Below are positions 2,917 to 62,500 of a stretch of DNA of 64,000 nucleotides, piece by piece (positions within the stretch are counted from its first letter, which is position 1; every line of letters starts with the position of its first letter). This stretch comes from Candidatus Omnitrophota bacterium (GTDB taxonomy: Bacteria > Omnitrophota > Gorgyraeia > Zapsychrales > Zapsychraceae). The DNA lies in contig JAIORP010000135.1 of NCBI GenBank assembly GCA_021108075.1, positions 23,938-87,937 of the forward strand, in the 5' to 3' direction. Both the position numbers and the translations under genes were made by a program. The notes under the pieces were generated by a model that had not been told where the DNA came from, did no database searches, and saw only the letters and a program-made list of their open reading frames with translations.

Positions 2917-3194
2917 ATCTTTCTTTAAACCCACAATACGCACTTAAAACACCCATCTACACACGAAATAAGTGCAGCATGAACACCCGTTGGTTCGCAA
3001 ATCCTGTTGTAGCGCCCGTTTCAAATCTAAAACGCAACACAACTATCTATTTTGCTCCTTGTCATGTCATTATTCCGCCTGATGACTTGATCATCTGAAA
3101 AAAATAATTTAAAACAAACCTTTTCATTGTAAAAAAAATAATGATAATAATAAATAGAAGCCACAGGGATAGCAAAACAGGGATAGACATTATA

Positions 3195-3277
3195 ATACCA
3201 AATCCATTAATAAATTGTTCTATCTTAATTCTGAAAAGCAGAATTGGTTTTGGTCATTATTTAATGGAATTGGTATA
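3195..3277. repeat. copy 1 of an ~82-nt imperfect-palindromic intergenic repeat family (ATACCAAATCCATTAATAAATTG...CATTATTTAATGGAATTGGTAT)
   Basis: Near-identical sequence recurs at 15955-16036 (same orientation) and, as reverse complement, at 18669-18750 and 48421-48502. The two arms are mutually complementary, with AATTCTG-AAAAG-CAGAATT at the centre. Confidence 0.85.
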
Positions 3278-3345
3278 ACGACACAAAAATGACAGATTAA
3301 CGCATGATCAAATTGTCGTTGATGACCATTTAAAATCATTAAGAA

Positions 3346-4110
3346 ATGAATATCTTTAAACGACCAATAAAAAAATTACTCAATTATATCAAAGTGATAA
3401 AATCAACGTTAATGACAAAAATCATTACGATGACCACTGTCTTAATTCTTTTAATTGCCCTTGAGCACCTTTTTTTTGTGCTCCACATGAAAAAAGAATT
3501 ACTACTCTTTCATGCTCATTCAAGCCATTCTTTTGTTGAACTTGTCAAAAAAGAATTATTAACAGTCGCCTTACCTGGTCAGGACCCGACAAAGAATGTC
3601 AGTGATCTTGAGCACAAAATTCATCAATATCACAAAGAACAATGCACCGAATACGAACGCCATGTGAATGAATCAATCCGCACTAATATTTTCCGAGATT
3701 TAGTCATCCTCATTATTTTTATGAGCATCCTCTTATCTTTAACTTATCACGCGTTAAAGCCTATCAACACCCTGACTAAAGCGATTTCTGAAATTAACAC
3801 CGGAAACTTTGATTATGATTGGAGCATCCAGACGACAGATGAGCTTGCATTTATGAGTGAATCCATAAACATAATGAGACGAAACCTCAAACGCATAGCG
3901 TTATCAAGGCAGGAACTAAACAAAGAAATTGCTGAACGAAAAAAAATAGAGCAGATATTAATCGAAGAAAAACACAACTTAGAAGTTTTTCAAAAAGCGG
4001 CAGTCGACCAAGAAATGCACATTATCAAACTTAAAAAGACGATAAACAACTTTATGACCAAAAAAGGACTCACACCCAAATATCGGATGAGTGAAAATAT
4101 TGAATTATGA
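3346..4110 (+). CDS. membrane protein with two TM segments, HAMP-like linker and coiled coil (sensor input module)
   Basis: Hydrophobic segments IITMTTVLILLIALEHLFFVL and LVILIIFMSILLSLTY, followed by a HAMP-like region (PINTLTKAISEINTGNFDYDWSIQTTDELAFMSESINIMRRNL) and a heptad-rich tail. Same frame as the downstream kinase gene but separated by stops. Confidence 0.6.
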   Translation: MNIFKRPIKKLLNYIKVIKSTLMTKIITMTTVLILLIALEHLFFVLHMKKELLLFHAHSSHSFVELVKKELLTVALPGQDPTKNVSDLEHKIHQYHKEQCTEYERHVNESIRTNIFRDLVILIIFMSILLSLTYHALKPINTLTKAISEINTGNFDYDWSIQTTDELAFMSESINIMRRNLKRIALSRQELNKEIAERKKIEQILIEEKHNLEVFQKAAVDQEMHIIKLKKTINNFMTKKGLTPKYRMSENIEL

Positions 4111-15383: not shown

Positions 15384-15938
15384 TTATTTTTCTCCCATCA
15401 ATTTATTCAGTCGATCAAAAGCTCTACTCCGGGCATTTTTCTTTTTCTGTTCTAACTCATTCTTATCTTCGCGCAACTTATATATCAATGAAAGAGAAAA
15501 CACGATATCTTCAAAACAATAGTGAAATGAAATCCTGTGCGTATTCGAAAAGTCCGAAAGAATGACCATTCGGTTCCCTTTAATTGTTGTAGGGATACTG
15601 ATCTCAAAACTATGCTCCGTTTCTTTCATCAACTTCATCTTAACACCACCGGCAATCATATTAATCTGCTCAGCGATCCCGTCAATCACTTCACGATTAG
15701 CGTCATCCAGTGTTGAATGAATCATCCTGGATACGATTTGACAGGCACTGCTGTTAGGTAAGCAAATCGCAATACTCCCTTCAATACTGCCGATAAAACC
15801 GATCGAACTGATAATGCATTCGTCGTCTAACATAACCTCATTTTCAATCTGCTTTGGGACTAACGATATCGTCGCAAGAAACGCGTCGGAAACAGACTCC
15901 TCCAATAACTTGCTTAAATGCTCTGATAATTCATTCAT
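15384..15938 (-). CDS. CheX/CheC-like chemotaxis phosphatase family protein
   Basis: 184 aa; segment DDANREVIDGIAEQINMIAGGVK resembles the CheX active-site region (E...N...G); low-complexity C-terminal tail. Confidence 0.55.
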   Translation of the reverse strand: MNELSEHLSKLLEESVSDAFLATISLVPKQIENEVMLDDECIISSIGFIGSIEGSIAICLPNSSACQIVSRMIHSTLDDANREVIDGIAEQINMIAGGVKMKLMKETEHSFEISIPTTIKGNRMVILSDFSNTHRISFHYCFEDIVFSLSLIYKLREDKNELEQKKKNARSRAFDRLNKLMGEK

Positions 15939-15954
15939 ATCTCATCTCCAAATT

Positions 15955-16036
15955 ATACCAAATCCATTAATAAATTGTTCTATCTTAATTCTGAAAAGCA
16001 GAATTGGTTTTGGTCATTATTTAATGGAATTGGTAT
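15955..16036. repeat. copy 2 of the ~82-nt palindromic repeat family
   Basis: Identical to 3195-3277 over about 82 nt; lies in the divergent region between the CheX-like gene and the first PEP-CTERM gene. Confidence 0.85.
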
Positions 16037-16321
16037 TAGTATCAAATTCAACCATTTTAAAACAATATAATTTATTGCTGATAGCATGTACAGCAAAAAC
16101 TCATCTTTTTAACAAAAATAATAAAAGTTCGGTCATGCTTATATATATAAAATTATACACTCAACTCATTAGTTGTTGCTTTTTTTGAACATTCAAATAT
16201 AATAGTAATACGAACAATAAGAAAAATAAGAAAATATGAGCCAATATAAGCCAAATAGAGATAATTAAACGTAGCATGGCACATTTATTGCTTATATATA
16301 TCAACGAGAGGAGTATACACT

Positions 16322-16705
16322 ATGAAAAAAATGTTTTTAATCATTATTTTATTAATGACTTGCATTTCCCTTCAAGGATGCAAAGGCGGCGGAAGTGGAT
16401 CAGGAAGTGGGATAACATCCGGCGGTGTTTTTCTAGATCCCATGGCTTTACTGAATGAAGACGGAACTGGCGATGATCCATTACCATGGACAACTGACGA
16501 ACCAGATGAAGAAAGCGAGGATAATTCCGGAGGAGAAGATCCAGACCCGATAGTATTGCCTGACTTATGTGAAGATAGCGAACATAATGTTGTTCCTTGT
16601 ATTGAAGGACCGGGAACTGAAGCACACTCAACACCAGAGCCTGCGACATTTTTCTTGTTGTTCAATAGCCTGTTAGGATTTGCTTTTTTTAAAAGAAAAA
16701 AATAG
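16322..16705 (+). CDS. PEP-CTERM sorting-domain lipoprotein (Gly/Ser-rich, acidic)
   Basis: GAGGAG RBS; lipobox-like LQGC after the signal peptide; C-terminus STPEPATFFLLFNSLLGFAFFKRKK is a PEP motif plus TM helix plus basic tail. Confidence 0.75.
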   Translation: MKKMFLIIILLMTCISLQGCKGGGSGSGSGITSGGVFLDPMALLNEDGTGDDPLPWTTDEPDEESEDNSGGEDPDPIVLPDLCEDSEHNVVPCIEGPGTEAHSTPEPATFFLLFNSLLGFAFFKRKK

Positions 16706-18336: not shown

Positions 18337-18668
18337 ACTCGTTTCGGTTGATATTTTTTTTTGAAAAAGCTAGATATCCTTTCCGATTAATATTACCATA
18401 AAAACAATTTAAACTTACGGTAAACATATGAACAGTCTGAAGGGATGCTCACCCACAACATTTGACAATATCTCTAAATCTTCAACCCCATCCCAAAGAA
18501 GGCGGGTTCTTTATTGAAACCTGCCGATCAGATGAATCTCTACAGGGAAACCTGCTTCACAAAAAATAAACAAAAAAAGAGGCCTGAAGTCAATCCTCTG
18601 ACGAACTTTTAATAATATTCTTGATTTAAAAACGGGAACGAAGTAGAATATACCGCATTAAGATAATA

Positions 18669-18750
18669 ATACCAATTCCATTAAATAATGACCAAACCCA
18701 ATTCTGCTTTTCAGAATTAAAATAGAACAATTTATTAATGGATTTGGTAT
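18669..18750. repeat. copy 3 (inverted orientation) of the ~82-nt palindromic repeat family
   Basis: Reverse complement matches copies 1 and 2 with two substitutions in the internal region; immediately upstream of the PilZ gene. Confidence 0.85.
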
Positions 18751-18765
18751 AAAGGAATAGCAACG

Positions 18766-19146
18766 ATGAAAAAAATGAAAGAAAAAAGAAAATTTATTCG
18801 AACTAAATGGAAATATCCCGTTGTTATCTTTGGACCAAACAATGAAATTCTCAACGGACAAATCAGCAATATTTCTCTAACAGGAGCCTACATTACCCGT
18901 GTTTTCCCTTGCATACTCCGCGTGGGCGATATATTCAGTTTTAATATCATCCTTTCCGATATTGACCTCGACCTCCGTATCGAAGGTGATGCTATCGTCC
19001 TTCGACAAGAATCAACCATCGGAATAGGAGTCAAATTCACAAAATTCAACGCAGACGCGCTCATGCACCTTCGCAAAATTGTTACGTACAATCATGAGGA
19101 CACAGAAAGCACACCCGGTAAACCTAAAATCTTTTCAGACAATTAA
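18766..19146 (+). CDS. PilZ domain protein (putative c-di-GMP receptor)
   Basis: RKFIRTKWK (RxxxR) and NISLTGAYI (D/NxSxxG) motifs, about 20 aa apart. Confidence 0.7.
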   Translation: MKKMKEKRKFIRTKWKYPVVIFGPNNEILNGQISNISLTGAYITRVFPCILRVGDIFSFNIILSDIDLDLRIEGDAIVLRQESTIGIGVKFTKFNADALMHLRKIVTYNHEDTESTPGKPKIFSDN

Positions 19147-47341: not shown

Positions 47342-48391
47342 ATGAATTCATCTCCAAATTTCTCAAAAAAATTGCTTTTCTGGTATAAAAAAACCGCTCG
47401 AACATTGCCCTGGAGGGAAACCAACGACCCTTACTTGATTTGGATTTCAGAAATCATGTTACAGCAAACAACTGTCAAGGCTGTCATTCCTTATTTCAAA
47501 AATTGGTTAAACAAATATCCCACGATTAAAATTCTGGCCCGAGCTAAGACAGATGAAATATTAAAAATATGGCAAGGACTGGGCTATTACCAACGTGCTA
47601 AAAACATCTTAAAAACAGCAAAAGTTGTGTCTACCCGATATCATGGGCAACTGCCGATGAATTATCAGCAATTACTCCATCTTCCCGGAATAGGACCCTA
47701 CACGGCCGGGGCGATTTTAAGCATCGCGTTTGACAAACCCCTGCCGATTATTGATGCAAATATTCGCAGAGTCATCCTGCGCTTCATCAACAAAAAACTA
47801 AAGACAAAAACAAATTCTGATAAAATTATCTATCAATTTTTAAAACAGCATATGCCAAAAAAGAATTGCAGCCATTTTAATCAATCCCTGATGGAACTGG
47901 GAGCCCTCATTTGCGTTAGTCGCAATCCGTTATGCTTGCAATGTCCGTTAATAAAAGAATGCCTCAGCTTCAAGAATGGGACTCAAGAAATCATCATCCG
48001 CCCGACTAAAAAAACGATCACAACATTACATGTGGCTATTGCAGTAATACGATACCAAAAAAAATTCTACCTGCAAAAACGCGCCTCAACAGGTATTCTT
48101 GCAGACTTATGGGAGTTTCCCGGAGGAAAAATCGAAAAAGGGGAGTCGCCCCTGCAGGCTGTCAAACGGGAAGTTTTAGAAGAATTGGATCTAGCATTGC
48201 ATAAAATCAAGTATCTCACAAAAATTATTCATTTTTATACCCGTTATCGCGTTGTGCTTTATGTGTTTATCTGTGATATAAAAAATATGATAGAAACTAA
48301 TGAACGTTTAAAATTGCTATCTTCACGCGATCTCAAAAATTACCCAATGCCTTCTGGGACTGCAAAAATAGTTTCCTTGCTCAAAAAATAA
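47342..48391 (+). CDS. mutY: A/G-specific adenine DNA glycosylase
   Basis: HhH-GPD LPGIGPYTAGAI; Fe-S loop CVSRNPLCLQCPLIKEC; C-terminal NUDIX-like EFPGGKIEKGESPLQAVKREVLEEL. Confidence 0.85.
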   Translation: MNSSPNFSKKLLFWYKKTARTLPWRETNDPYLIWISEIMLQQTTVKAVIPYFKNWLNKYPTIKILARAKTDEILKIWQGLGYYQRAKNILKTAKVVSTRYHGQLPMNYQQLLHLPGIGPYTAGAILSIAFDKPLPIIDANIRRVILRFINKKLKTKTNSDKIIYQFLKQHMPKKNCSHFNQSLMELGALICVSRNPLCLQCPLIKECLSFKNGTQEIIIRPTKKTITTLHVAIAVIRYQKKFYLQKRASTGILADLWEFPGGKIEKGESPLQAVKREVLEELDLALHKIKYLTKIIHFYTRYRVVLYVFICDIKNMIETNERLKLLSSRDLKNYPMPSGTAKIVSLLKK

Positions 48392-48420
48392 TAGTATGAT
48401 TATACAAAACTCAATAGATA

Positions 48421-48502
48421 ATACCAATTCCATTAAATAATGACCGGAACCAATTCTGCTTTTCAGAATTAAGATAGAACAATTTATTAATAGATTTGGT
48501 AT
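48421..48502. repeat. copy 4 (inverted orientation) of the ~82-nt palindromic repeat family
   Basis: Reverse complement matches copy 1 with substitutions (CCGG for TTTG in the internal loop, T for C once); lies between mutY and surE. Confidence 0.85.
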
Positions 48503-48662
48503 AATTATCCTATTTAAATGCTAGTATTTTCGTTTGAACATCAATAATATCATAATGACCTTGGTGATTATTTAATAAATTTAGTATAATTGTCTGTTTG
48601 TGCAAAATAATGACGAACGGTCTTTCATCAAAACAAACTAATTCTAAATAAGAGGAGTTCTT

Positions 48663-49412
48663 ATGCGCATATTATTAACTAACGATGATGGCATTGGGGC
48701 CGAAGGATTATTGGCTGTTTATTCAAGTTTAAAAAAAATTGCTGATGTCGATGTGGTCGCGCCATTAGATCAAAAAAGCTCCATTGGACATGCCATCACG
48801 CTTTCCCAACCGCTATTCGCAAAAAATATTTTTAAAAATAAAAAAAAATTCGGAACAGCTATTTCCGGCACGCCAGCTGATTGTGTTAAATTCGCTATCG
48901 GTGTTTTAAAAATAAAACCTGATCTGATTATTTCAGGCATTAATCTCGGGCACAATGACGGATGCAGTGTCTTTTATTCCGGCACTGTAGCCGGAGCCAG
49001 GGAAGCTGCCCTTCTAGGATACCCTGCAATGGCCGTATCACTGGCAACTTTCCAACAACCCGACTACTCATATGCCGCAAAACTCAGCTCAAGACTGGCG
49101 AAAAAAATGATTGAGTTCAAATTCCCTTATGGAAAATTCTTAAATGTCAATATTCCAAACCTAAAGCAAAAAGAAATTAAAGGAGTACGCATAACACGTC
49201 AGTGTACAGATCCGATCCATGGGCTCTTTTATAAAAATATAAATCCTCATGGCGACGAATACTATTGGATGAGTGGAAAGATTCCATCGCCTCAAAAAGA
49301 TGTCAACATCGACACCTATGCCCTCCAACAAAAATACGTCACGGTCACACCGATTCAAAATGATTTAACCGACGCGTCGTTATTAGAAGAAATTAAAAAT
49401 TGGGATTTATAA
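48663..49412 (+). CDS. surE: 5'/3'-nucleotidase SurE
   Basis: MRILLTNDDGIGAEGL N-terminal DD(G) metal site and overall SurE pattern; GAGGAG RBS. Confidence 0.9.
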   Translation: MRILLTNDDGIGAEGLLAVYSSLKKIADVDVVAPLDQKSSIGHAITLSQPLFAKNIFKNKKKFGTAISGTPADCVKFAIGVLKIKPDLIISGINLGHNDGCSVFYSGTVAGAREAALLGYPAMAVSLATFQQPDYSYAAKLSSRLAKKMIEFKFPYGKFLNVNIPNLKQKEIKGVRITRQCTDPIHGLFYKNINPHGDEYYWMSGKIPSPQKDVNIDTYALQQKYVTVTPIQNDLTDASLLEEIKNWDL

Positions 49413-49786: not shown

Positions 49787-50578
49787 ATGAAAAAAATATT
49801 TCATTTTCTGACCATTATTACCTTTATTACCCTATCCGATCATTATGCTTCAGCACAAAAGGTGATCATGGGAGAAATTATTAATGTCAACTATCGATAT
49901 TTAACCGCCTTTTCAGACCTCAGCCGACCATATGTTCAGCCCGGTGACATTGTCGAAATATACAGTGACGGCATGTTCGTAACTTATTTAAAAGTATCCG
50001 AAACTTCAACAGCGATCTCAAAACTCATTCCGATAAAAAGAAAAGGACCATATAAAACGCAGATCAACTTCAAAAAAATCAGCATTGGATTTCAAGTTAA
50101 AAAAATCGATGAAGAGGATGCTTCTTTGTTTATCGAAAAAACAACTGAACAATTACCTCGCGCTATGGAACAACTGCCAGATACGATATCAGAAAACACT
50201 CTTCTCCTTGATGATTCAAACACGACCTTCTCTGATGATTCCTTTAATCAACTCCAGGAAGATTATAATATTCTTAACATTAAATATTCATCTTCTTTAG
50301 AAAGCGCATCCAAATTACAACAAAATTTACAGACTCAAACTCAAAAAATATTTACTTTGCGTGCAGACCTGACAACGTCTCAAGAAAAAATTGAACGACT
50401 GATAAAAAAAAATCAAGAGTTGGAGAGAAAAAATTTAAATAAAGATTTCAGCCAGCAAAAATTATTATATGAAACATGCCAGGACGACCTAACCAATCTC
50501 AATAAAAAAATGTTAATCATTCGGAAAAAACTTCAATATATTTTTAATATCTTAAAAAGAAAGATGGGCAATTTATGA
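49787..50578 (+). CDS. secreted coiled-coil protein, translationally coupled to the giant ORF
   Basis: Signal peptide MKKIFHFLTIITFITLSDHYASAQ; C-terminal half is heptad-rich; its TGA stop overlaps the ATG of the next ORF (ATGA at 50575-50578). Confidence 0.5.
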   Translation: MKKIFHFLTIITFITLSDHYASAQKVIMGEIINVNYRYLTAFSDLSRPYVQPGDIVEIYSDGMFVTYLKVSETSTAISKLIPIKRKGPYKTQINFKKISIGFQVKKIDEEDASLFIEKTTEQLPRAMEQLPDTISENTLLLDDSNTTFSDDSFNQLQEDYNILNIKYSSSLESASKLQQNLQTQTQKIFTLRADLTTSQEKIERLIKKNQELERKNLNKDFSQQKLLYETCQDDLTNLNKKMLIIRKKLQYIFNILKRKMGNL

Positions 50579-53500
50579 GAACACACATAAGATTACTTTC
50601 TGTACTCCTATTACTATTAACGTTTCCTTCCACAACAATTCTCGCGGACACAAACACAGATACGATTAAGTTGTTAAGGACATCCATACAAAGTAAAGAC
50701 ACCCTCATTGAAGACTTAATGGATGAGAAGGATACATTGTCAAAACAACTTGAAATCCAGCGCGAAGAAAAGAAAAAATTTGAAAAAGAACTTATCCTTC
50801 TGCAAAAAAACATTGGAAAACTTGATGATGCATCACGTTCCGGTCAAGATGATGCTGCAAATTTGCGTCTTCAAAAAGAATCTTTAATGCGCCAGCTTAA
50901 TAAAGTCAGGAAAGAAAAAGTCAGGCTGGAAGACACGATATCCAAGTTGAATAAAAGTATGGATATTACCGACTCGAACGTTAACAGCAAGGTCGACGCA
51001 GCAACCTCGGCATTAAAAACCCGTGTACAAGAATTAAAATTACAACTTATCTCTTTGGAAGAAAAAATCGAAAACTCAAACACCAAACAATCAAAACTAC
51101 AAAAAGAAATCCACAAATTAGAAAACGAAAAAGCGTCCTTAACAAAAAAAATTACGCTCCGTGACAAGAATATAAGCACCCTTAAAAGACAACTCGTTGA
51201 TAAAATCAACGCGGTCCGTAAGCCGCTACAAAATGAACTCAGACAAACGAATGCTGCTTTAGCGATATCCAACAATGTCGTAAGGGACAAACAACTCGAG
51301 GTCTCGGAACTGAACCGGAAATACGAATTGACCTTAGTGAACATTAGAGAACTCAATAATAAGCTGGATAAAAAAGACATCGAAATTGAAGAACTCAACA
51401 ACAAAATTAAATCCATTCAAATACAGACTTCAGAAAAAATTTCATCGATCAGCGATCAAGCTAAAAAAGACATTGAAACGCAACGCGGCAAAGTCCAGTC
51501 CAAAAATAAAACACTCCAGGAAGAAATCTCCGATTTAAGTACTGACAAAAAAGATCTGCAGAAACAAATTTCAGACAAAAAAGAAGCCGTACGATTGATC
51601 AGGCGAGACAGAAAAACACTACAAACAAAATTAGACCAATTACTAATCCGCAATAAAGATTTGTTAAATAAGACAGCCAAACTTCAAAATGACATTAATG
51701 CCATTGAAGATTCCATAAAGGACAAAATTTCTGAGGCGAAACAACCCCTTTTAGGAGAAATAAAAAAATTAGAAGACAACATAAAGACTTTAAGTCGGCA
51801 CATGAATAACAAACATGAAAAAATCGACCTGGTCCTTGAAGAAAACAAAAGGCTGAAAACCCAGCTTGATAAAATTGTCACAATTAAAAATAATTATTCA
51901 AAAGATAATGCGTTATTAAAAACCCAGCTTAAACTAAACTCCGATAAAGTTGCCGTTCAAATTTCTTCCGTTAAAAAACCACTTGAAAAATCCATCCAAT
52001 CACTTCAAGAAGAATTAAATTCATTGCGAAAAACGAATGAAGTCAAAGGGCAAGAGATCAAGGCTCTGGAACAAAAAAAATCAAAATTAAAAACAGATCT
52101 CGATAGATTATCAACGGGAAATACAACCCTCAGTCAAAAAGTTAACAAATTAGAACTTTCGCTAAAACAAGAAAAAAAATTGCAGTCCGAAAACATCGAA
52201 GATATACAAAGTTCCTTACTAGATAAAATAATAACAATGGAGAAACAATCCAACGCCCTAAAAGCAACGGTTAAGGAGAAGGGATCATATAACCTGAAAA
52301 TTGTCGGTCAAAATAAATCCCTCACAAAAAAAGTCGCGAAGCTGGTAGAAGAAAAAACCGGAGCGTTTGAAAACCTTAAAAACATTCAAGTTCGATATAA
52401 CGAGATCAAATCAACATTAGACAAACGCATCAAAGTTGCAACCAAAGCATTAACTGAAGAAGTTCAACAATTAACAGTGCAACTGAAAAGTGCCCAATCC
52501 GGCCTTGAAGGAACAGACACTAAAATCATTCGTTTAAACAACGAAAAGAACAAACTGCAGGTCGAATTATCCAGGGAAGAAAACCAGCGACGTCAACTTG
52601 AAGCAAACATCACCGAACTGAAAAATCAACTGATACAAGTTCAAAAAGAACTGCCCAAAAAAATCAGCAGTGTCCGAAGCTCATTAGGCAAGAAAATTAA
52701 AGAACTCGAAGCTGAATTAAACACTCTGAATAAAGGAATCGCCGAACAGAAGACGAAAGTCTCAAATTTGTCGGCCGATAAATCTTTACTCCAAAATAAT
52801 TTGAAAAAAATAACGACAGAAAAGGGAATCATAGAACAAGAACTCCGACAACTTCAAGTTAGATTTAAAGGCCTGAACGACACTCTGCCACAAAAACTAT
52901 CTAAAATTGAACAACCACTCAAAACTGAAATCAATAAGGCGAATAAAAAAATAACCGAGCAAGAGGAAACAATCGCGAGCTTGTCATCCAAAAAATCTTT
53001 GCTCCAGAATGATTTAAAAAAGACAGAGACGGGAAAGAAAATCATAGAGCAAGAACTTTTGAGAATCAAAAATCAATTAAAAGGCCTGAATGACACCCTG
53101 CCGCAAAAAATATCTAAAGCCGAACAACCACTCAAAACTGAAATTAATACGGCGAAAAAAAGAATAACGGAGCAAAAAAAGACCATCTCTACTTTGACAT
53201 CCGAAAAAATCATGCTTAAAAATAATTTAAAAAATATAGAAACAGAAAAAGGATTCATAGAGCTAGAACTCCGGCAACTCAAAAATAAATTTAAAGGCTT
53301 GAACGACACTCTGCCACAGACGATATCTAAAGCCGAACAACCACTCAAAGAGCAGTTAAATACAGCGAACAAAAGGATAATGGAGCTAAAAAGAATCATC
53401 GCGAATTTGTCATCCGAGCAATCTTTCTTCCAGAATGATATAAAAAAAATAGAGACAGAAAAAGAACTCGTAAAAAATGAGCTCCAACAACTCAAAAACA

Positions 53501-56500
53501 AGTTAAAAGGATTAAAAAACGCTCTTCCTCAGAAAATATCATCAGTCCAGAAACCCCTAAAAGAAGAAGCCTCAAGACTAAAGGAACAATTATCAAACAC
53601 AGAAAATTCTTTGCATATAAAACAAGAACGAATTAATAATTTGACGATTCAGAAAAAAAATTTAGACAATAACATTACCCGCCTCAACACGGAAAACAGC
53701 AAGTTAAAAAGTGACATCATCAATCTTCGCAGACAGTTGGCCGGTCTAGAAGACAGTATCCCACTAAAGATTGAATCGGCAAAAACTCCCTTTGAAAAAG
53801 ACCTCTCCGACTTAAAAAATCAATTGCGGGAGGTTAATAATACAGTTACACGTAAAAACAAAAAAATTAAGACATTAAGTCGAGAACATCAATATTTACA
53901 GAATCGAATAGCGGATAAAGAAAAAATCATCAGCGCGCTGGAGCAGGATGTCGTTTCTTATAAAGATGAAGTCCTCAGCACTCAAAACTCATTGGATTCT
54001 AAAGTAAAGCAAGAAAGAATCCCTCTTGAAGCAAAAATCACGCAATTAAAGACAGAACGTCAACAAGCCGAACTAAAAATCGAAGAATATACCATTCTCA
54101 TAAAAACATTACATGAAAGAATAGAAGAGAACGCTTTAAAATCAAAAGAAATCACTACGGAAAAAAAAGACCTGGAAATAAATTTATCTAAAGTCACCGA
54201 AGAGTTCAACAACAATAAAAAAATTGTCGCTGATAAGATCAAAAACGCAAAAGATCCGCTCAAGAAAACAATCGCCATTTTAAACAAAAAAATCATCGCG
54301 ATTGAGAATGCTATCCAATCCAAGCAAACAACCATCAACAAAGTCACCCAAAAAAATGAAACATTAACGCGCCAGTTTGAAGATATCAAAAAAACAAAGA
54401 ACTCCATATCTCTTGATCTCCTGAAAATACAAAAAGAATTTGATTCGCTTCACGTATCCATTCCCCAAAAAATGATAGCTGCCAGGAAGCCACTGGAGTT
54501 GGAGATTGAGCAACTCACACAAAGGCTGAAAAAAGCGTCTACGTCTGTCAAGGCGAAACAACAGGAACTTAATCAGACGACCAAAGATAAATCACAACTG
54601 CAGATCAATCTGTCCAGAACAAAATCTACGGCCGATAAATTAGAATACGAATTAAAAAATATTCAGAATGCACTTAAAAGCTCAAAGAATGATATACCGA
54701 TAAAAATTTCTGAAGCCCTTGCGCCGCTAAATACTAAGATCAATGCGTTAGAAAAAGACTTAGCACTGTCAAAAAGCAAACTGCAATCAAAAAAAGAAAC
54801 GATAAAAAACCTTCAAAATGAAATGCTTTCATTGAACAAAAAACTTTCGCAAACACAGACTGAAAAAACCAATTTAGCCTCGAAAAACACAGCTTTAAAC
54901 GATGAAATAAAAGCTCTCGAAGAGGCCATCGTAGCAGAAGTCAAACAAGTGCAAATACCATTGGAAAAAACGATAAAATCATTGCAGGTCGCCCTGAAAA
55001 GCATGCAAAATAAACTATCGGACAATAATACTAATTTAAATAGAATTAATAAAGAAAAAGAAACCGTCACGAATAATCTAAACCAGCAACAACAGAACAA
55101 AGCGTCTTTACAAAAAAAAATTGACGGGCTTAAAACTACAATTGATAATCTAAAAAAAACGTTGCCAACTCAAATTGACCAGGCCAAGTCTCCGTTATTA
55201 AATGATATCAACAAACTTCAACAAAAATTATCCCAGGCAAATAGTACCATTTCACATAAATCTGACAAAATATCCGCACTTAAGCGGGACCACCATATTA
55301 TTAATGTTCAATTAAACAATTTACAAAGCGAAAAAGCTGAATTAAATAAACAGATAGAGAATATGCTTGAACGCGTCAAGCAAGCAGAACTGTCGGTGCC
55401 TCAAAAAATTCAAAAAGTTGAAAAACCGTTGAATAATGAAATCCGTGAGCTAACCGAACAGGTTCTGAAGACAAAAACCCTTATTCAAGTGAAAAATGAG
55501 GCCTTAGAAGTCTTATCAAAAAACAAAAACGCATTGGAATCATCACTCAAAAAAGTCCGGCAAGAAAAAAAACAATTGGCCCAAAAAATAACGGAATCTG
55601 AAGAACTCATTAAAGAGAAGCAGCGTTCCATTGGCAGCTTGAAACAGAACAACTACCAATTAAACAGCAAAGTAAGCAAATTAAATAGAAACCATGAATC
55701 CCTGCAAGCCAATTATGACAAAATACAAAAAGAGCTAAGACGAGCTAAAGCATCCACACCCAAAGAAATCTCTTCTGCCATCCAACCCCTGAACAAAAAA
55801 ATTGAAAGTCTCCGGAACGAACTGGACAAAGCCAAAGAAGATCTAAAAGAAAATCATGGCGCAATATCTTCAACCCATCAAGAAAAATCCTCAATGTTAA
55901 CCAAAATCAATGTATTGAACCGTGATAACAAAATCTTATCCCAGGAAATAAACAATGTAAAAACTAAGCTGCAAGAAGCCAACAATAGCATTTCCAATCA
56001 AATTTCCAGAGCGACGATTCCCTTAGAAGAAAGTATAAACAACATGACCGAAAAGCTGGCAAAAACTGGAGACGCCCTATCTAAAAAGCAAAATGAAATT
56101 GACGAACTTATTCAGGACAAAAACCAGCTTAACCACAAACTGAAACAGCTTCGAATGGAAAGAGAAGACGCAGGAAAAAGGCTGACGAGACTGCAGGATA
56201 AATTCGCAATAGCACACACGTCCAGTCAACAAGAAACGATAAAAGCGCAAAAGAAGCATCGAGAAAAGATAAAAAAGTTGGAGCATGAATTATTGGAAAT
56301 GAATGCTGCTGTTCTGGCGAAAGAAAAAAAACTCGCATCTTTGGAACAAAACAATCAAAATCTCAATCTCCTATTACGCAATTTAAGAAAAGAGAAGTCA
56401 ACCCTGAATAAGGAGACCGTTAATCTTCTGAACAAAATTAAACTTACTGAAGCGGCAGTCCCTCAAATGATTCAAATGACCAAAAGGCCTTTGAAAGAAA

Positions 56501-59500
56501 GAATCCAGACATTGACGGCGAAAGTGAAACAAACAAATGATTTAATCAATCAAAAAGAAGATTTGCTTAAACAAACTACAAAAGAAAAATTATTATTATC
56601 ACAAAATTTGACCAAGGCTCAAGAAACACAAAAGAATTTATCACAGGAAATCATTACCTCAAATAAACTCGCTCTCAAACATAAAGCGGATCTAATAAAA
56701 ATTGAGCAAGAAAACCTTGGACTGAAAAACGAAATAAGGTCCACACAGGAAACATCCGGAAATCTGGAGAAAAAAATTGAAAGAATCACGCAAGAGCTGC
56801 TTAACAGCAGAAATAACACAGCGAAAATTACCGCGAAAGAGATCTCTAAACTAACCGATCAAATCACCGCATTTAAAGACCAGTTGAAAAATTCATCGGT
56901 TAAATTGAAACAAAAATCGGAAAATATCCTTGCGGTCCAGCGCGAGAAGGAAGGCCTGACAACAAAAGTCGAGTCACTGACGGATGAAAAAAACTCCTTG
57001 GAACAAAACATCTCTGTCTTAAAATCAAAAATCGCACACACGAATACGGATCTTGAAAAAAAGGCGGAAACAATAAATCTGTTTAACAACAACAAAGACG
57101 CACTCGAATCTAAACTAAATACCGCTATAAATGAAAAAAATAAACTGAAACAAGAGGTTAAAGTTCTACGAACAGAAATTTTCCAAATAAAAAAGCAAAC
57201 CCCTATGCAAGTTGAAGAAGCGAGGCAGCCATTGAAAAAAGCCCTCAGGCATAAAGAGAAAGCAATCGCAGATGCCAATCGGGCTACAAAAGAAAAACAA
57301 ACGCGTATTAATCAGCTGTTACAAAACGACCAAGACCTAACGCAAGAAGTCCAACGCTTGAAACAAATACAGGTCACATTAAACGATAGCAACGCAAAAC
57401 TGAAAAAAAGCATGGACAAGGTCTCTAAGTCTATTCCAGCAAAAATATCAGAAGCCAAATTCCCCTTAGAGCAAGCCATTAAAATGCTTAAAAATAAATT
57501 ATTGAATATCGAAAACGAGTTAGTCAATAGACAAAAAAAGATTGACGCTCTGAATAAAGAACGTTCAGGAACTCAGACAAACCTCCAACAACAGATTAAG
57601 GTAAAACAAAATCTGTCAAAACAGATTGATGCGTTAAATAAGCAATACGCGTCTGTCCAAAAATCTATACCGGACAAGATTAAAACAGCTAAACGGCCTT
57701 TAGAGAAAAAAATTGAATCGCTTAATAAACAAATGATTGAACAGTCTGAAATCATCCGTCAACAAGAAAATAAACTCGCAGGGTTATCATCAAAAAATCA
57801 AAACATGACAGATTCTCTAAGCGTGATCAAAAATGAAAAATTGTCGCTGGAGAACCAAATAAACCAATTATTAAGCGCTAACAAAAAATTAAACACTGTC
57901 CTTCCAGAAAAAATCCGTCAAGCCAAACAACCCCTTGATAAAAGGATCAAAGACCTCAACCTCCAACTTGGGCAGTCACATAAATCTTTAACTGTTAAAG
58001 AGCAGGAAATAGTTAAATATAAAAATAAATCGCAACAGCTATCAACCCAAATCTCTAAATTGCAAAACGAACATAATCAACTGTTAACTCTCAACAAAGA
58101 CCTCAACATAAAGCTCGTCAGCCTCCAAAAAGAATTGCCTGATAAAATCGCCAGGATTAAAACGCCGTTGGAAGCCAATATCGCACAAATTTCTCAAAAG
58201 CTTTCTAACGCTCAAACACTAGTCAAAAAACAACAGGCGAGCATTGACCTGTTAACCAAACAACGCGACATTACCAGCTCAAATCTCAACAAGCTCAAAG
58301 ACCAGGAACATCAAACCCAAAAAGGATTAAAAGCTAAACAGGAACTATTAAGCCAGAAAAACAATTCGCTTAAGTTGCTCTCACAGGAAAACGCCCGGCT
58401 CCAGGATAAAATCGCTTCCATCAACAACGAAAAAGACCTTCTTGGAAAAAAACTGTCTCAAGTAGAACAAAAAATTCTTGAAACACAAAAAAAGATACCT
58501 GAAAAAGTCAATTTAGCCACAGCACCATTGAAACAAAAAATACAAAAACTCATCAACGAATTGGAACAAACGCAAACCTCCATTAAACTAAAAGATAATA
58601 AAATAACACAGCTCACACAAAAAAGTAAAGACATTTCACAACGGCTTGAAGAAACGCAGCGCCAAAAACAGGCTGCAGATAAAAACTTAACTCGGTTAGC
58701 TCAAGACAAAGAAAACCTTGAAAAAGTTGCGATGCCTAAAGCTCTTATTCTAGCAAAAATACCTTTTCAGGATAAAATTAAACAATTATCAGAAGACATT
58801 CAAAACAGTCAGGATACAATGACTGATAGAGAACGCACAATCGCCCAGTTAAGAAAGGAAAAAGCGGCGATTAACTCCAAGTTAAAAGGAATATCTGACG
58901 ATAAAAAGAATCTCCTCGCTACAATTAATAACTTGCAGAATGAACTAATTAACTATAAAAAATCCATGCCCCAACAATTATCGAAAGCCCGTGATCCTTT
59001 GGAGAAAAAAATAACATTTCTTCAAAATCAAATCGACAATACTTTTGACGAATTACAAGACAAACTCTTAATCATAGCGGAACTTGATGACGACATTGAT
59101 TATCTGAAGAAATCTTTAAACAACTCTACAAATCAAAATATCCAGGATAAAAAGTCCATTGAGGCCTTAAAGAGAGATCTTATTCGTAACAAAGAAAAAA
59201 TGGCAAATGAATTGCATAACACAGTCAGCCCTTTAAATGCCAGTTTAAACATCTTAGAAAAAAAACTGATTACCACCGAAGCGGCAGTTATTAAAACACA
59301 AAAAAACAACAAAAATCTGATTGTTGCAAATAACACGCTTCAGAATGAAATCAAAAATTCTGTCCAAAAGATAACGGAATTATCTGACAAACTTAAATCT
59401 GAGAAACAAAAAATCACAAAACTGCAAAGTGAAATTCCTAACCGAATCAAAGAAAAAACAAACCCATTGACCGAGCAAATATCAACTTTAAACAAATCAA

Positions 59501-62500
59501 TCGCTTCATATAAAAAGAATATCGAAAAGCAATCCATCGACAATCAAAAACTCCGTGAAATCAACAACCACACGAAAACAGCGCTCGAAAAAGAAATTGA
59601 GTTTAAAAAGAAAATTCAAACAAATTATGGTAATTTGAAAAAAACGATAAACGAACTTGAACAGAAACAACCTGAAGAGATAATAGCCGCTACAACCCCC
59701 CTAAACAACAGAATTAAAGAAATACGAAAAAAATTATCCGCATCCAGCCAAAATATTGCCAGTAAAGATAAAACAATTGAAGAACTGCGCATCACAAATA
59801 AAAAACTCGCAAATGATTTAAACTCATCGCAAAAGAACAATATTCTTTTAAATAAAAATATAGTTATGTTTGAAGAACAAATTGACAAAATAAATAATGA
59901 GATTCCTTCCAAACTATCGACTGCGACCAAACCTTTGAAGAAAAGGATCCTTGACCAAAAGAATACACTCACAGAGCTTTCAACGTCGGTCGACAGACTC
60001 AACCAGGATTTAAGCGACACTCAAAAACAAAGAAACCAATTGACATCAGACTTTGTTCAGTTAAAAGAGAAAAATCAAGAACTGCTTAAATTAATTGATG
60101 AATTAAGAAGCACCTTGTCGTTAACCAAGGCATCGATCCCGAAACAATTAGAATCCGCGCAAAACCCCTTAAAAAAAGAAATCAAAAAACTTCAGGAACA
60201 ATTCCAATCAACACAATCCGAGTTCCATAAAACACGGGATAACTACGGAAAGTTGAAAATTGAAAATAAAAAATTATCTCAGACATTATCCCGAACTGAA
60301 TCACAAAACAACGCCTTAGCCGGCCAGCTTCAAGACATCACACAAAAGTTAACCGTATTACAAAAAGTGCTCCCTAAAAGAGTGTTTGAAGCGAAGCTTC
60401 CTCTCGAAGAAAAATTGAAGAATTGGAAGGATAATTTCGCTAAAATGGAAACGGAATTAAAGGACACACTGGCCTTATTGCAAAAAGACCGTGACAGTAA
60501 CAATAAACTGAAAAAGGAATTCACAGCGTTGTCCAACAACAATAATAATCTCGAACAAGTGAATGCAAGTCTCAAAAATAAATTAGCTCAACTGCAAGGT
60601 TCACTCCCTAAAAAAATTAACGATGCACAGAAAACACTTAAGGTTAAACTTCAAAATCTAACAGAAACCTTGCAGGACCGCGATACGCAACTCAACCAGA
60701 AATCAAAAAAAATCACAGCACTAAATAATCAAATCAAAGCACTCACCCAGGACAACACTGACCATTCAACCATCGTCCGATCCCTGGAAGAAAAAAATAA
60801 AAAAATCATAAAAAATAACAATATCCTCAGTCTGCAGATTGAACAATGGCAAAAAGACTACCCAAACAAGATCAAACAGGCCCAGAGGCCATTAGAGGGC
60901 CAAGTTGAACAATTAAAGCAGCAATTTGCAAATGAGGCCGAAAAGAACAAACGAAATCAGGAACTCATTGCAAAATTAGAACAGGATGTCACCAACTCAC
61001 GAAATAATATTGTGCAAAACGAAGCAACGATCAAAATCCTAACATCCGAGAAACGAAACTTAGAAAACAGATATGCCAGTTTAAACGACTCTATCCCTCA
61101 AAGGATATCGAAATCCAAAACTTCTCTAGAGCAAATGATCCATAAACTAAAGCAATCCAACGACGAGTTGAACACAACGGCTAAAAGAAAAGACCGAACG
61201 ATCAATCAACTGACCGATCAATCAAAGGAACAAAGCCAAAAAATTGATTCTTTTAGATCTAAAAACTCTGAATTGCAAAAACAGCTCAATAATAAAATTA
61301 CTGAATACGCGACAAAAAGATCTGAACTTTCCAAAAAATTAACAGCAGCTGAAGCCACTGTCAAAGAGCAAACAGATAAAGAGAAAAAATTAAAAACACG
61401 GCTCCAAGCTTTAAAAAACATTAATGTGGAAACGCAGAAAAAATTCTCAACAACAATCAAGGAAAAAACACAAATAGATCAAAAGTTTGCCGAGATCAGC
61501 AAGAACCTGTCTATCAAAAATAATGCCATTAACCAATATAAGACTACGGTCAGTAAACTTAGGGATTCCTTACGTAATTTAGAAACCAACAAAGAGAATC
61601 TAGCACGGCGGGTGACAGAACTAGAAAAGCTAAATGACACCATCAAAACATCATTGCCTGAAAAAGTTGAAAGTGTAAAAGCCCCGCTTCTTTCAAAAAT
61701 CAATCAACTCGAGACTGCGATAGAAGAAAACACAAATGAACTATCAAGGGCAAAGACAACCCTGAAAACTTTGAAAGATGAAAATAAAGCCCTCAACAAA
61801 ATCCTCGAAAGCGTTAAGAGAGACAATTCTCTCTTGTCACAAAAAACAGATTCATTTAGAAAAGAAATCGACAAATCCAAAACCCAGGGCGAACTCGAGA
61901 TCAACCAAATAACAAGCGATCTCAGAAATAAAATTCAAATCATCCAGGAAAAAGAAAAACTAATTAAGCAGCTTCAATCTGACTTCAGAAACCTTAAAAA
62001 CGACCACGACCAGTTGGAAAAAAAATACCGCAACACAATTCGTGAGTTTGACGGCGCGCGAATTAAATTAGAACAGTATAAAGAAAAAATTTCGATGGAG
62101 ATAGAAAAGGCACGTAACCCCATATTAAATCAACTCAATCAAGTTAAAAGCGAACTTATATCCACGATGAGCGCCTTAAAAGAAAAAGATGAAAATATGA
62201 CAAGCATGAATAGAAATTTATCTTCATTGAACACAAAATACGATCAACTCAATAAAAAAAAAATCGCTTTTGAGGATCAACTCAGCCAATCAATCACCCG
62301 TTACCAAAAACTAGAAAGTGAAACACAAAACACGATTGACCGGACAAAAAGCACGCTCCATTCAGATATCAACAAGTTAGAAAAAGCCCTGGTAGTTAAA
62401 AGAGCCGAAATATCGGCAAAACAGAATAATATTCTTGAAAACGAAAAACAAATCAGCTATTTAAAGAAGGATCTTCAATCACTCAACGATAAAAATCAGA

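Follow-up and report, generated by a model that had tools for sequence, protein, structure and literature searches.

An 80-bp intergenic repeat in an Omnitrophota genome is very probably a MITE of a TNA-duplicating IS630 subgroup

A repeat that recurs between genes in a 64-kb stretch of DNA from a Candidatus Omnitrophota bacterium (the window, 64,000 nucleotides) is very probably an 80-bp non-coding MITE, derived by internal deletion from an insertion sequence (IS) of the IS630 family (Tc1/mariner-type, DDE_3). Judging from sequence comparison, we put the probability of this reading at about 0.9. We observe the copies themselves, their TIRs, the target-site duplications around them, the identity of these TIRs with the ends of IS630-family ISs, and an intergenic bias. 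Elements of this kind are already well known; the family itself, in an uncultured phylum, is previously undescribed. A full-text literature search combining Omnitroph* with MITEs found no paper, and a search for the TIR string gave no matches. A sequence-only reading of the window had offered three candidates for the repeat: a REP/MITE-like element, a family of structured small RNAs and a protein-binding palindrome. The MITE part of that list stands, on the strength of 20-bp TIRs, 3-bp duplications, dispersed copies and ends that are those of IS630-family ISs, and the REP, small-RNA and regulator-site parts are not supported.

An 82-mer pattern matches the window four times, at 3195-3276 and 15955-16036 on the forward strand (0 mismatches each) and at 18669-18750 (2 mismatches) and 48421-48502 (3 mismatches) on the reverse strand. 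None of 100 shuffled controls matched the pattern, and an independent repeat search of the window recovered the same copy pairs, so the four-copy repeat in both orientations that had been described is real. Its unit, given as about 82 nt, is slightly too long: the element proper is 80 nt, runs from TACC to GGTA, and occupies 3196-3275, 15956-16035, 18670-18749 and 48422-48501, and the 82-mer pattern of copy 1 ends at 3276 rather than 3277. When the four copies are aligned with 60 nt of flank, likeness ends sharply at the element edges and the flanks are unrelated, which rules out segmental duplication, the origin that had been set against a dispersed family. The bases directly outside ATACC...GGTAT in this alignment are not complementary and instead form direct repeats; read on the forward strand, the 3-mer is TAA/TAA at copies 1, 3 and 4 and TTA/TTA at copy 2. 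Terminal direct repeats had been reported as absent, yet an identical 3-mer flanks every window copy (4 of 4).

With its duplication, copy 1 spans 3193-3278 (forward strand), and TAA lies at 3193-3195 and 3276-3278. Its TIRs are at 3196-3215 and 3256-3275, and an inner hairpin pairs AATTCTG (3227-3233) with CAGAATT (3239-3245); the neighbours are a response-regulator gene (2539-2916) and a HAMP-domain gene (3346-4110). Copy 2 (15953-16038, forward; TTA at 15953-15955 and 16036-16038) is identical in sequence to copy 1. The start codon of the minus-strand CheX gene (15384-15938) is 17 nt downstream of this copy, with a GGAG ribosome-binding site between them. Copy 3 (18667-18752, reverse; TAA at 18667-18669 and 18750-18752) carries two substitutions and lies 16 nt upstream of a PilZ-domain gene (18766-19146). 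Copy 4 (48419-48504, reverse; TAA at 48419-48421 and 48502-48504), between mutY (47342-48391) and surE (48663-49412), has three substitutions. One of these is a C>T change in the outer arm, contrary to the earlier statement of invariant paired ends. A SurE protein identical to that of the window is listed by NCBI under a Candidatus Omnitrophica MAG. All four copies are intergenic, as had been said, and the neighbours named at that time (a response regulator, a divergent region, PilZ and mutY/surE) are the right ones, to which the HAMP protein and CheX can be added.

A fifth, decayed copy of a longer form of the element (about 103 nt) lies at about 48505-48589 on the forward strand, and was recognized from an nhmmer match (E 0.039) together with a pairwise alignment to the 103-nt element of locus L004 and a weak arm match at 48567-48586. 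The left TIR is mostly lost, and TAA follows the right arm, TTGGTGATTATTTAATAAATTTAGTA. The left edge of this remnant is where copy 4 sits, in a nested or adjacent arrangement.

The two arms of the window element, TACCAAATCCATTAATAAAT and TACCAATTCCATTAAATAAT, are complementary at 17 of 20 positions, and at 20 of 20 in many relatives. A long hairpin is predicted on both strands (z about -3.5 to -4.3 for RNA and -4.7 for DNA), in agreement with the folding first proposed. The only ORF over any copy, 15814-16188, is a chance ORF across copy 2, and the claim that the repeat has no ORF of its own holds to that extent.

Elsewhere in the window, an ORF of at least 4554 aa (source-contig gene call) starts near 50575 and runs off the end. 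The region 50575-64000 has a very strong A-over-T skew (about 0.4), and three tandem repeat copies spaced 213 nt apart lie at 52704-53429. The orthologue of this ORF in a relative gives only faint or weak Pfam matches of coiled-coil and filament type.

We gathered relatives of the element with a degenerate both-arm pattern over species-representative genomes and a conserved-arm scan of JGI metagenomes, and examined the 43 distinct elements, 75-120 nt long, for which both flanks were present; they come from the window, from two MAGs and from metagenomes. Identical 3-mers flank 31 of the 43 (TAA in 18, TTA in 11, TGA in 1 and TCA in 1); in 100,000 permutations of the right flanks, the mean was 14.4 identical 3-mers and the maximum 25. 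Duplication lengths of 1, 2, 4, 5 and 6 nt fit none of the 43 elements, and the arrangement TAA...TTA, expected were the flanks simply part of the palindrome, occurs in only two cases. We conclude from these three results that the element makes a 3-bp TNA target-site duplication, with TWA preferred. Insertion at TA with a 2-bp TA duplication, the canonical IS630 pattern, is found at 0 of 43 elements, compared to 31 of 43 for 3-bp TNA, and the family therefore belongs with a TNA-duplicating IS630 subgroup and not with the canonical TA type. An IS5/PIF-Harbinger-type parent, which was first guessed from the TWA duplication alone, was dropped because the TIR ends IS630-family elements.

The link to this family comes from ISs that end in the same TIRs. 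The 20-bp TIR TACCAATTCCATTAAATAAT also terminates ISs encoding IS630-family transposases. In the metagenome contig L043, a perfect TIR is preceded by TAA, and 3 nt inward of it a 107-aa ORF, which has the motif DRASWH...LPPYSPELNPMEQVW, reaches its stop codon; no partner arm appears before the contig ends. This ORF is a DDE_3 domain (PF13358, E 2.8e-15), and its homologues carry IS630-family transposase annotation. After TAA, the L043 IS end begins with 24 nt, TACCAATTCCATTAAATAATGACC, that match one MITE arm exactly. The 1540-nt contig L060, on which one of the transposase homologues lies, carries a complete IS about 1.14 kb long. This IS is bounded by perfect 31-bp TIRs (TACCAATTACGTTAAATAATTGAGGTTTTTT), and the initial 20 nt of the TIR, TACCAATTACGTTAAATAAT, recur unchanged as the arms of MITE copies in L004, L005 and L016. 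Its orfA (243 aa) bears an HTH, and its orfB (107 aa) is a DDE_3 ORF. Against the NCBIfam model NF033545, 'IS630 family transposase', orfA scores 111.6 bits (cutoff 100) over model positions 4-180 and orfB 79.9 bits over positions 210-298, so that the two jointly span positions 4-298; P0121 scores 137 bits against the same model.

Directly before the IS in L060, at 381-420, is a second, diverged TIR-like sequence (TACCAATTGCTTAAAATAA|TACCAATTACG...), which suggests that the IS inserted beside an older element end, in the manner of the tandem MITEs in L002 and L003.

Related full-length ISs of 1410-1412 bp, with similar ends (TACCATTTCC... and TACCAATTAC...), recur in one long-read genome (L055-L058). 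Three of these (L055:1833-3243, L056:1830-3241 and L058:1831-3240) have TWA on both sides (TTA/TAA, TAA/TAA and TAA/TTA, respectively), and the middle base agrees in one of the three. The mismatches may reflect recombination among IS copies, or a target preference without a strict 3-bp duplication; the 3-bp duplication is thus demonstrated for the MITEs and not directly for the full-length IS copies examined. Within the 64-kb window we saw no full-length parent IS. Solo arms in L012, L017 and L020 have ordinary genes and no transposase beside them, and their partner arms have probably diverged. A scan of viral contigs with the 20-mer TIR returned 0 matches, a plasmid-database BLAST with the window element returned only chance-level matches, and BLAST with an Alteromonas TIR found no IS.

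Taken together, the element has several defining traits of prokaryotic MITEs: it is non-coding and shorter than 500 bp, it has TIRs and a target-site duplication, its copies are dispersed and mostly intergenic, and its TIRs are shared with ISs, here through the L043 end and the complete L060 IS, both from outside the window. In the mechanism that we infer, which covers mobilization in trans, the cutting geometry and current activity of the MITE, a transposase supplied by a full-length IS would bind both 20-bp TIRs (TACCAAWTCCATTAAWWAAT), excise the element and insert it at TNA (TAA or TTA in most cases) through cuts staggered by 3 nt. The 3-bp duplication would arise when this stagger is repaired. 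The palindromic hairpin shape would simply follow from the TIRs and the palindromic interior. AT-rich spacers offer many TWA targets, and selection acts against insertions within genes. Copies would therefore collect in intergenic DNA, in many cases a few to tens of bases before a start codon.

Several lines of evidence bear on how widely the element has spread. Two other MAGs carry family members on many contigs, at numerous sites that are not orthologous. In another sample of the same population, one contig (L032:1-1400, compared with window positions 16036-16340) is identical to the window through CheX and copy 2 and then runs on into a uvrB flank that the window does not contain. Either the assembly is chimeric at the repeat, or two MITE copies have really recombined; in both cases it follows from the uvrB flank that the 80-nt form has a further copy next to uvrB, beyond the window. 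Short-read contigs with the neighboring genes start inside or right after the element in L023, L024, L033, L034 and L035 and, by coordinates, in L027 and L028; all assemblies of the same organism either contain the element or break within it. The uvrB copy, the contig breaks and the non-orthologous sites in other genomes indicate a dispersed family. Some insertions are in tandem or share a duplication (L002 and L003), and clustered or nested insertions are known in other bacterial MITEs (PMC10969869).

The sequence around 45 elements shows how strongly they favor intergenic positions. ATG-ORFs of at least 120 aa span 72% of the bases there, and 44 of the 45 elements lie outside them; the one ORF that contains an element is spurious. 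Among elements within 200 nt of a gene start, one arm faces the gene in 13 cases and the other in 11, which shows no orientation bias. At the mutY-surE locus of a relative, L029 (84% SurE identity), there is no element, and the spacer is too diverged for alignment base by base. We found no clean empty site, either in this diverged spacer or in the JGI metagenomes; the empty site predicted for copy 2, CATCTCCAAATTAGTATCAAATTC, is absent from the JGI metagenomes, which may lack this organism.

Longer forms of the element suggest where the 80-nt form came from. A MAG labelled 'uncultured Planctomycetales' (CAZIRV01) has elements of 102-104 nt on many of its contigs, and more copies of the family occur in the Omnitrophota MAG OFTM38 and in several metagenomes. 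Compared to these relatives, the window form is missing about 23 nt of interior: the long forms read ...CTGCTTTCTCG-loop-CGAGAAAAGCAG AATT..., and the window form reads AATTCTG AAAAG CAGAATT. By inspection, the inner hairpin seems to have lost its tip. Minimum-energy folds predicted for two long forms have interiors that differ from each other. Among 60 loci, the 19-nt core AATTCTGAAAAGCAGAATT occurs only in those of the same organism. The decayed copy beside copy 4 means that the long form was once present in the window lineage, and the identity of copies 1 and 2 points to recent amplification of the 80-nt form in this Omnitrophota lineage.

One relative, at L013:3459-3670, is a 212-nt MITE copy with an extra insert of about 100 nt. 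The insert holds a different near-perfect palindrome of about 60 nt (CGTGTCATTGCGAGTATGCAA...TTGCATACTCGCAATGACACG), and it appears that a second family of repeats has nested within the MITE.

Elements of 177-280 nt with the same or a similar TIR (TACCAAT...) and TWA flanks occur in Alteromonadales: in Paraglaciecola (L022:3071-3333 and L010:3412-3588, the latter on the reverse strand), Pseudoalteromonas (L030:2974-3244) and Alteromonas (L031:2948-3222). Their interior differs from that of the window element, is richer in G+C and contains a conserved loop, AATGGTTGYTCCCTTTCAAA. In a consensus fold built from only four sequences, compensatory double changes affect 26 of the 57 pairs. Searched against Rfam, these elements gave no match at E<1, and Paraglaciecola relatives gave only sub-threshold chance matches. 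The Alteromonadales element may be a MITE that carries a structured RNA.

The window element can be placed among well-studied systems. Correia elements (CREE) of Neisseria have the Neisseria-type 26-bp TIR, a TA duplication and an optional IHF site. The window TIR, TACCAATTCC..., is presumably unrelated to the Correia TIR, and we take the resemblance to be functional only. The two families presumably have unrelated sequences, and Correia elements duplicate TA and can carry an IHF site, whereas the window family duplicates TNA. Both are nonetheless MITEs with long TIRs that often lie just upstream of genes, those of Neisseria being about 100-150 bp (PMC10969869). Long hairpins form in Correia transcripts and are predicted for those of the window element, and in both the ends plus the duplicated target can make -10-like boxes (PMC10969869). 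The promoter and RNase III effects of Correia elements have been shown experimentally, whereas those of the window element are putative.

The closest known analogue is RUP, a 107-bp MITE of Streptococcus pneumoniae attributed to IS630-Spn1 (PMC2229807). Both are intergenic multi-copy MITEs of about 100 bp whose copies are highly similar and whose TIRs match an IS630-family IS, and in both, insertions are clustered or nested and movement in trans is presumed (PMC2229807, PMC10969869). They share no sequence similarity, however; RUP belongs to Firmicutes and duplicates TA, whereas the window family belongs to Omnitrophota and duplicates TNA. Another close system is ISDrpg7 and ISDrpg8, IS630-family elements of Deinococcus radiopugnans that have the TIR TACGGACTCCGATTAA and are flanked by 3-nt direct repeats, TGA, TAA or TCA (PMC10017437). 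A 3-nt TNA duplication and the terminal motif TAC..A.TCC.ATTAA are common to these ISs and the window family, and the transposase gene is in either case a short DDE_3 ORF, about 107-187 aa long (PMC10017437). The Deinococcus elements are autonomous, unlike the non-coding 80-bp window derivative, and the TIRs match at about 10 of 16 positions by eye. Given the TNA repeats and the shared terminal motif, the window repeat is best read as a MITE of the TNA-duplicating IS630 subgroup. The canonical IS630/Tc1/mariner duplication is TA, as demonstrated in vitro with ISY100, which inserts almost exclusively at TA (PMC2170065). Its transposase is of the same family as the parent of the window element (NF033545, DDE_3), and the expected mechanism is the same, with an N-terminal HTH that binds the TIRs and a transposase that suffices alone for cut-and-paste transposition (PMC2170065). 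The difference lies in the cut, which for ISY100 leaves a 2-bp duplication and for the window elements implies a 3-nt stagger at TNA.

Copies 2 and 3 lie directly outside the ribosome-binding sites of CheX and PilZ, and one rival reading is that some copies of the MITE have been co-opted, for example to control these genes as a 5'-UTR hairpin or through an outward-facing -10 box. Both copies have the same arm facing the gene at spacings of 17 and 16 nt, and at copy 2 the element end and the duplication together spell TGGTATAAT, similar to an extended -10. Correia elements, moreover, supply promoters and RNase III sites (PMC10969869). Against this, a scan for consensus promoters does not single out these sites, a transcript started from the -10-like box at copy 2 would begin downstream of the ribosome-binding site, and the family as a whole lacks an orientation bias. 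Co-option is therefore unlikely in our judgment. If the promoters lie further upstream, an 80-nt hairpin would be present in the 5' UTRs of CheX and PilZ. As a transposed MITE, the element would exert any influence on a neighboring gene, whether by such a hairpin or by the -10-like TATAAT that the element end and the duplication create together, as a putative side effect. A broader proposal, which we likewise regard as doubtful, is that a TACCAAT-ended, TNA-duplicating IS630 subgroup seeded a cross-phylum MITE superfamily with selected structured cargo or co-opted members, in which the CheX and PilZ copies would be 5'-UTR hairpin or promoter modules and the 177-280-nt Alteromonadales relatives would carry a conserved, covarying RNA.

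A role for RNA structure itself, as independently transcribed small RNAs or cis-regulatory hairpins retained for their fold, would account for the stable predicted hairpin (z about -4) and for the two copies that lie 16-17 nt upstream of start codons. Pairing in the interior is also kept across subfamilies (TTGCT/AGCAA versus TTACT/AGTAA). However, both strands fold equally well, as they would for any DNA palindrome, and the orientation to the adjacent gene is random, where a strand-specific RNA or an oriented module would show a bias. A search of the whole window against Rfam 15 at gathering score found no match, leaving the small-RNA candidate unsupported. Scans for sigma-70 and terminator consensus sequences around the copies showed nothing specific, and there is no consistent promoter or terminator. 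When 39 long-form elements were analyzed with RNAalifold, only the TIR stem was recovered, and the interior alignment was inconsistent. Changes in the TIRs do occur in pairs (TTCCAT/ATGGAA versus TTACGT/ACGTAA), but they track TIR variants of the parent ISs, and transposase recognition would explain such concordant changes better than RNA structure. Since the target-site duplications and IS630 ends explain the shape without any RNA function, we consider an RNA origin of the family very improbable.

Equally remote is a palindrome selected by the host as a protein-binding site, such as a nucleoid-protein site or a regulator operator common to signaling genes. Three of the four copies do adjoin chemotaxis or second-messenger genes (response regulator/HAMP, CheX and PilZ), but the whole window is rich in signaling genes, and the same ends are found in unrelated genomes beside unrelated genes. 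The outer arms are strongly conserved, as an operator might be, yet binding by a transposase accounts for this conservation, and neither a 3-bp duplication nor IS-identical ends would be expected of an 80-bp operator. The mutY-surE locus of L029, which is without the element, also speaks against a selected site. Finally, REP/REPIN-type extragenic palindromes spread by a RAYT (IS200/IS605-like tyrosine) transposase are likewise short, intergenic and found in both orientations, but REPs have neither 20-bp TIRs matching a DDE IS nor target-site duplications, the 31 of 43 elements with a 3-bp duplication and the IS630-family ends exclude that identity, no RAYT-like gene was seen beside the copies inspected, and the probability that we attach to it is close to nil.

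As a MITE, the repeat gains a concrete identity, and the Omnitrophota family is tied to an IS630 subgroup in which the duplication is TNA and not the TA of textbooks. Short-read assemblies of this organism break in the element, which may also give rise to chimeric contigs (L032 may be one). It also lengthens intergenic spacers and would put 80-bp hairpins between the promoters and the ribosome-binding sites of signaling genes. Beyond these points, its biology is that of an ordinary mobile element.
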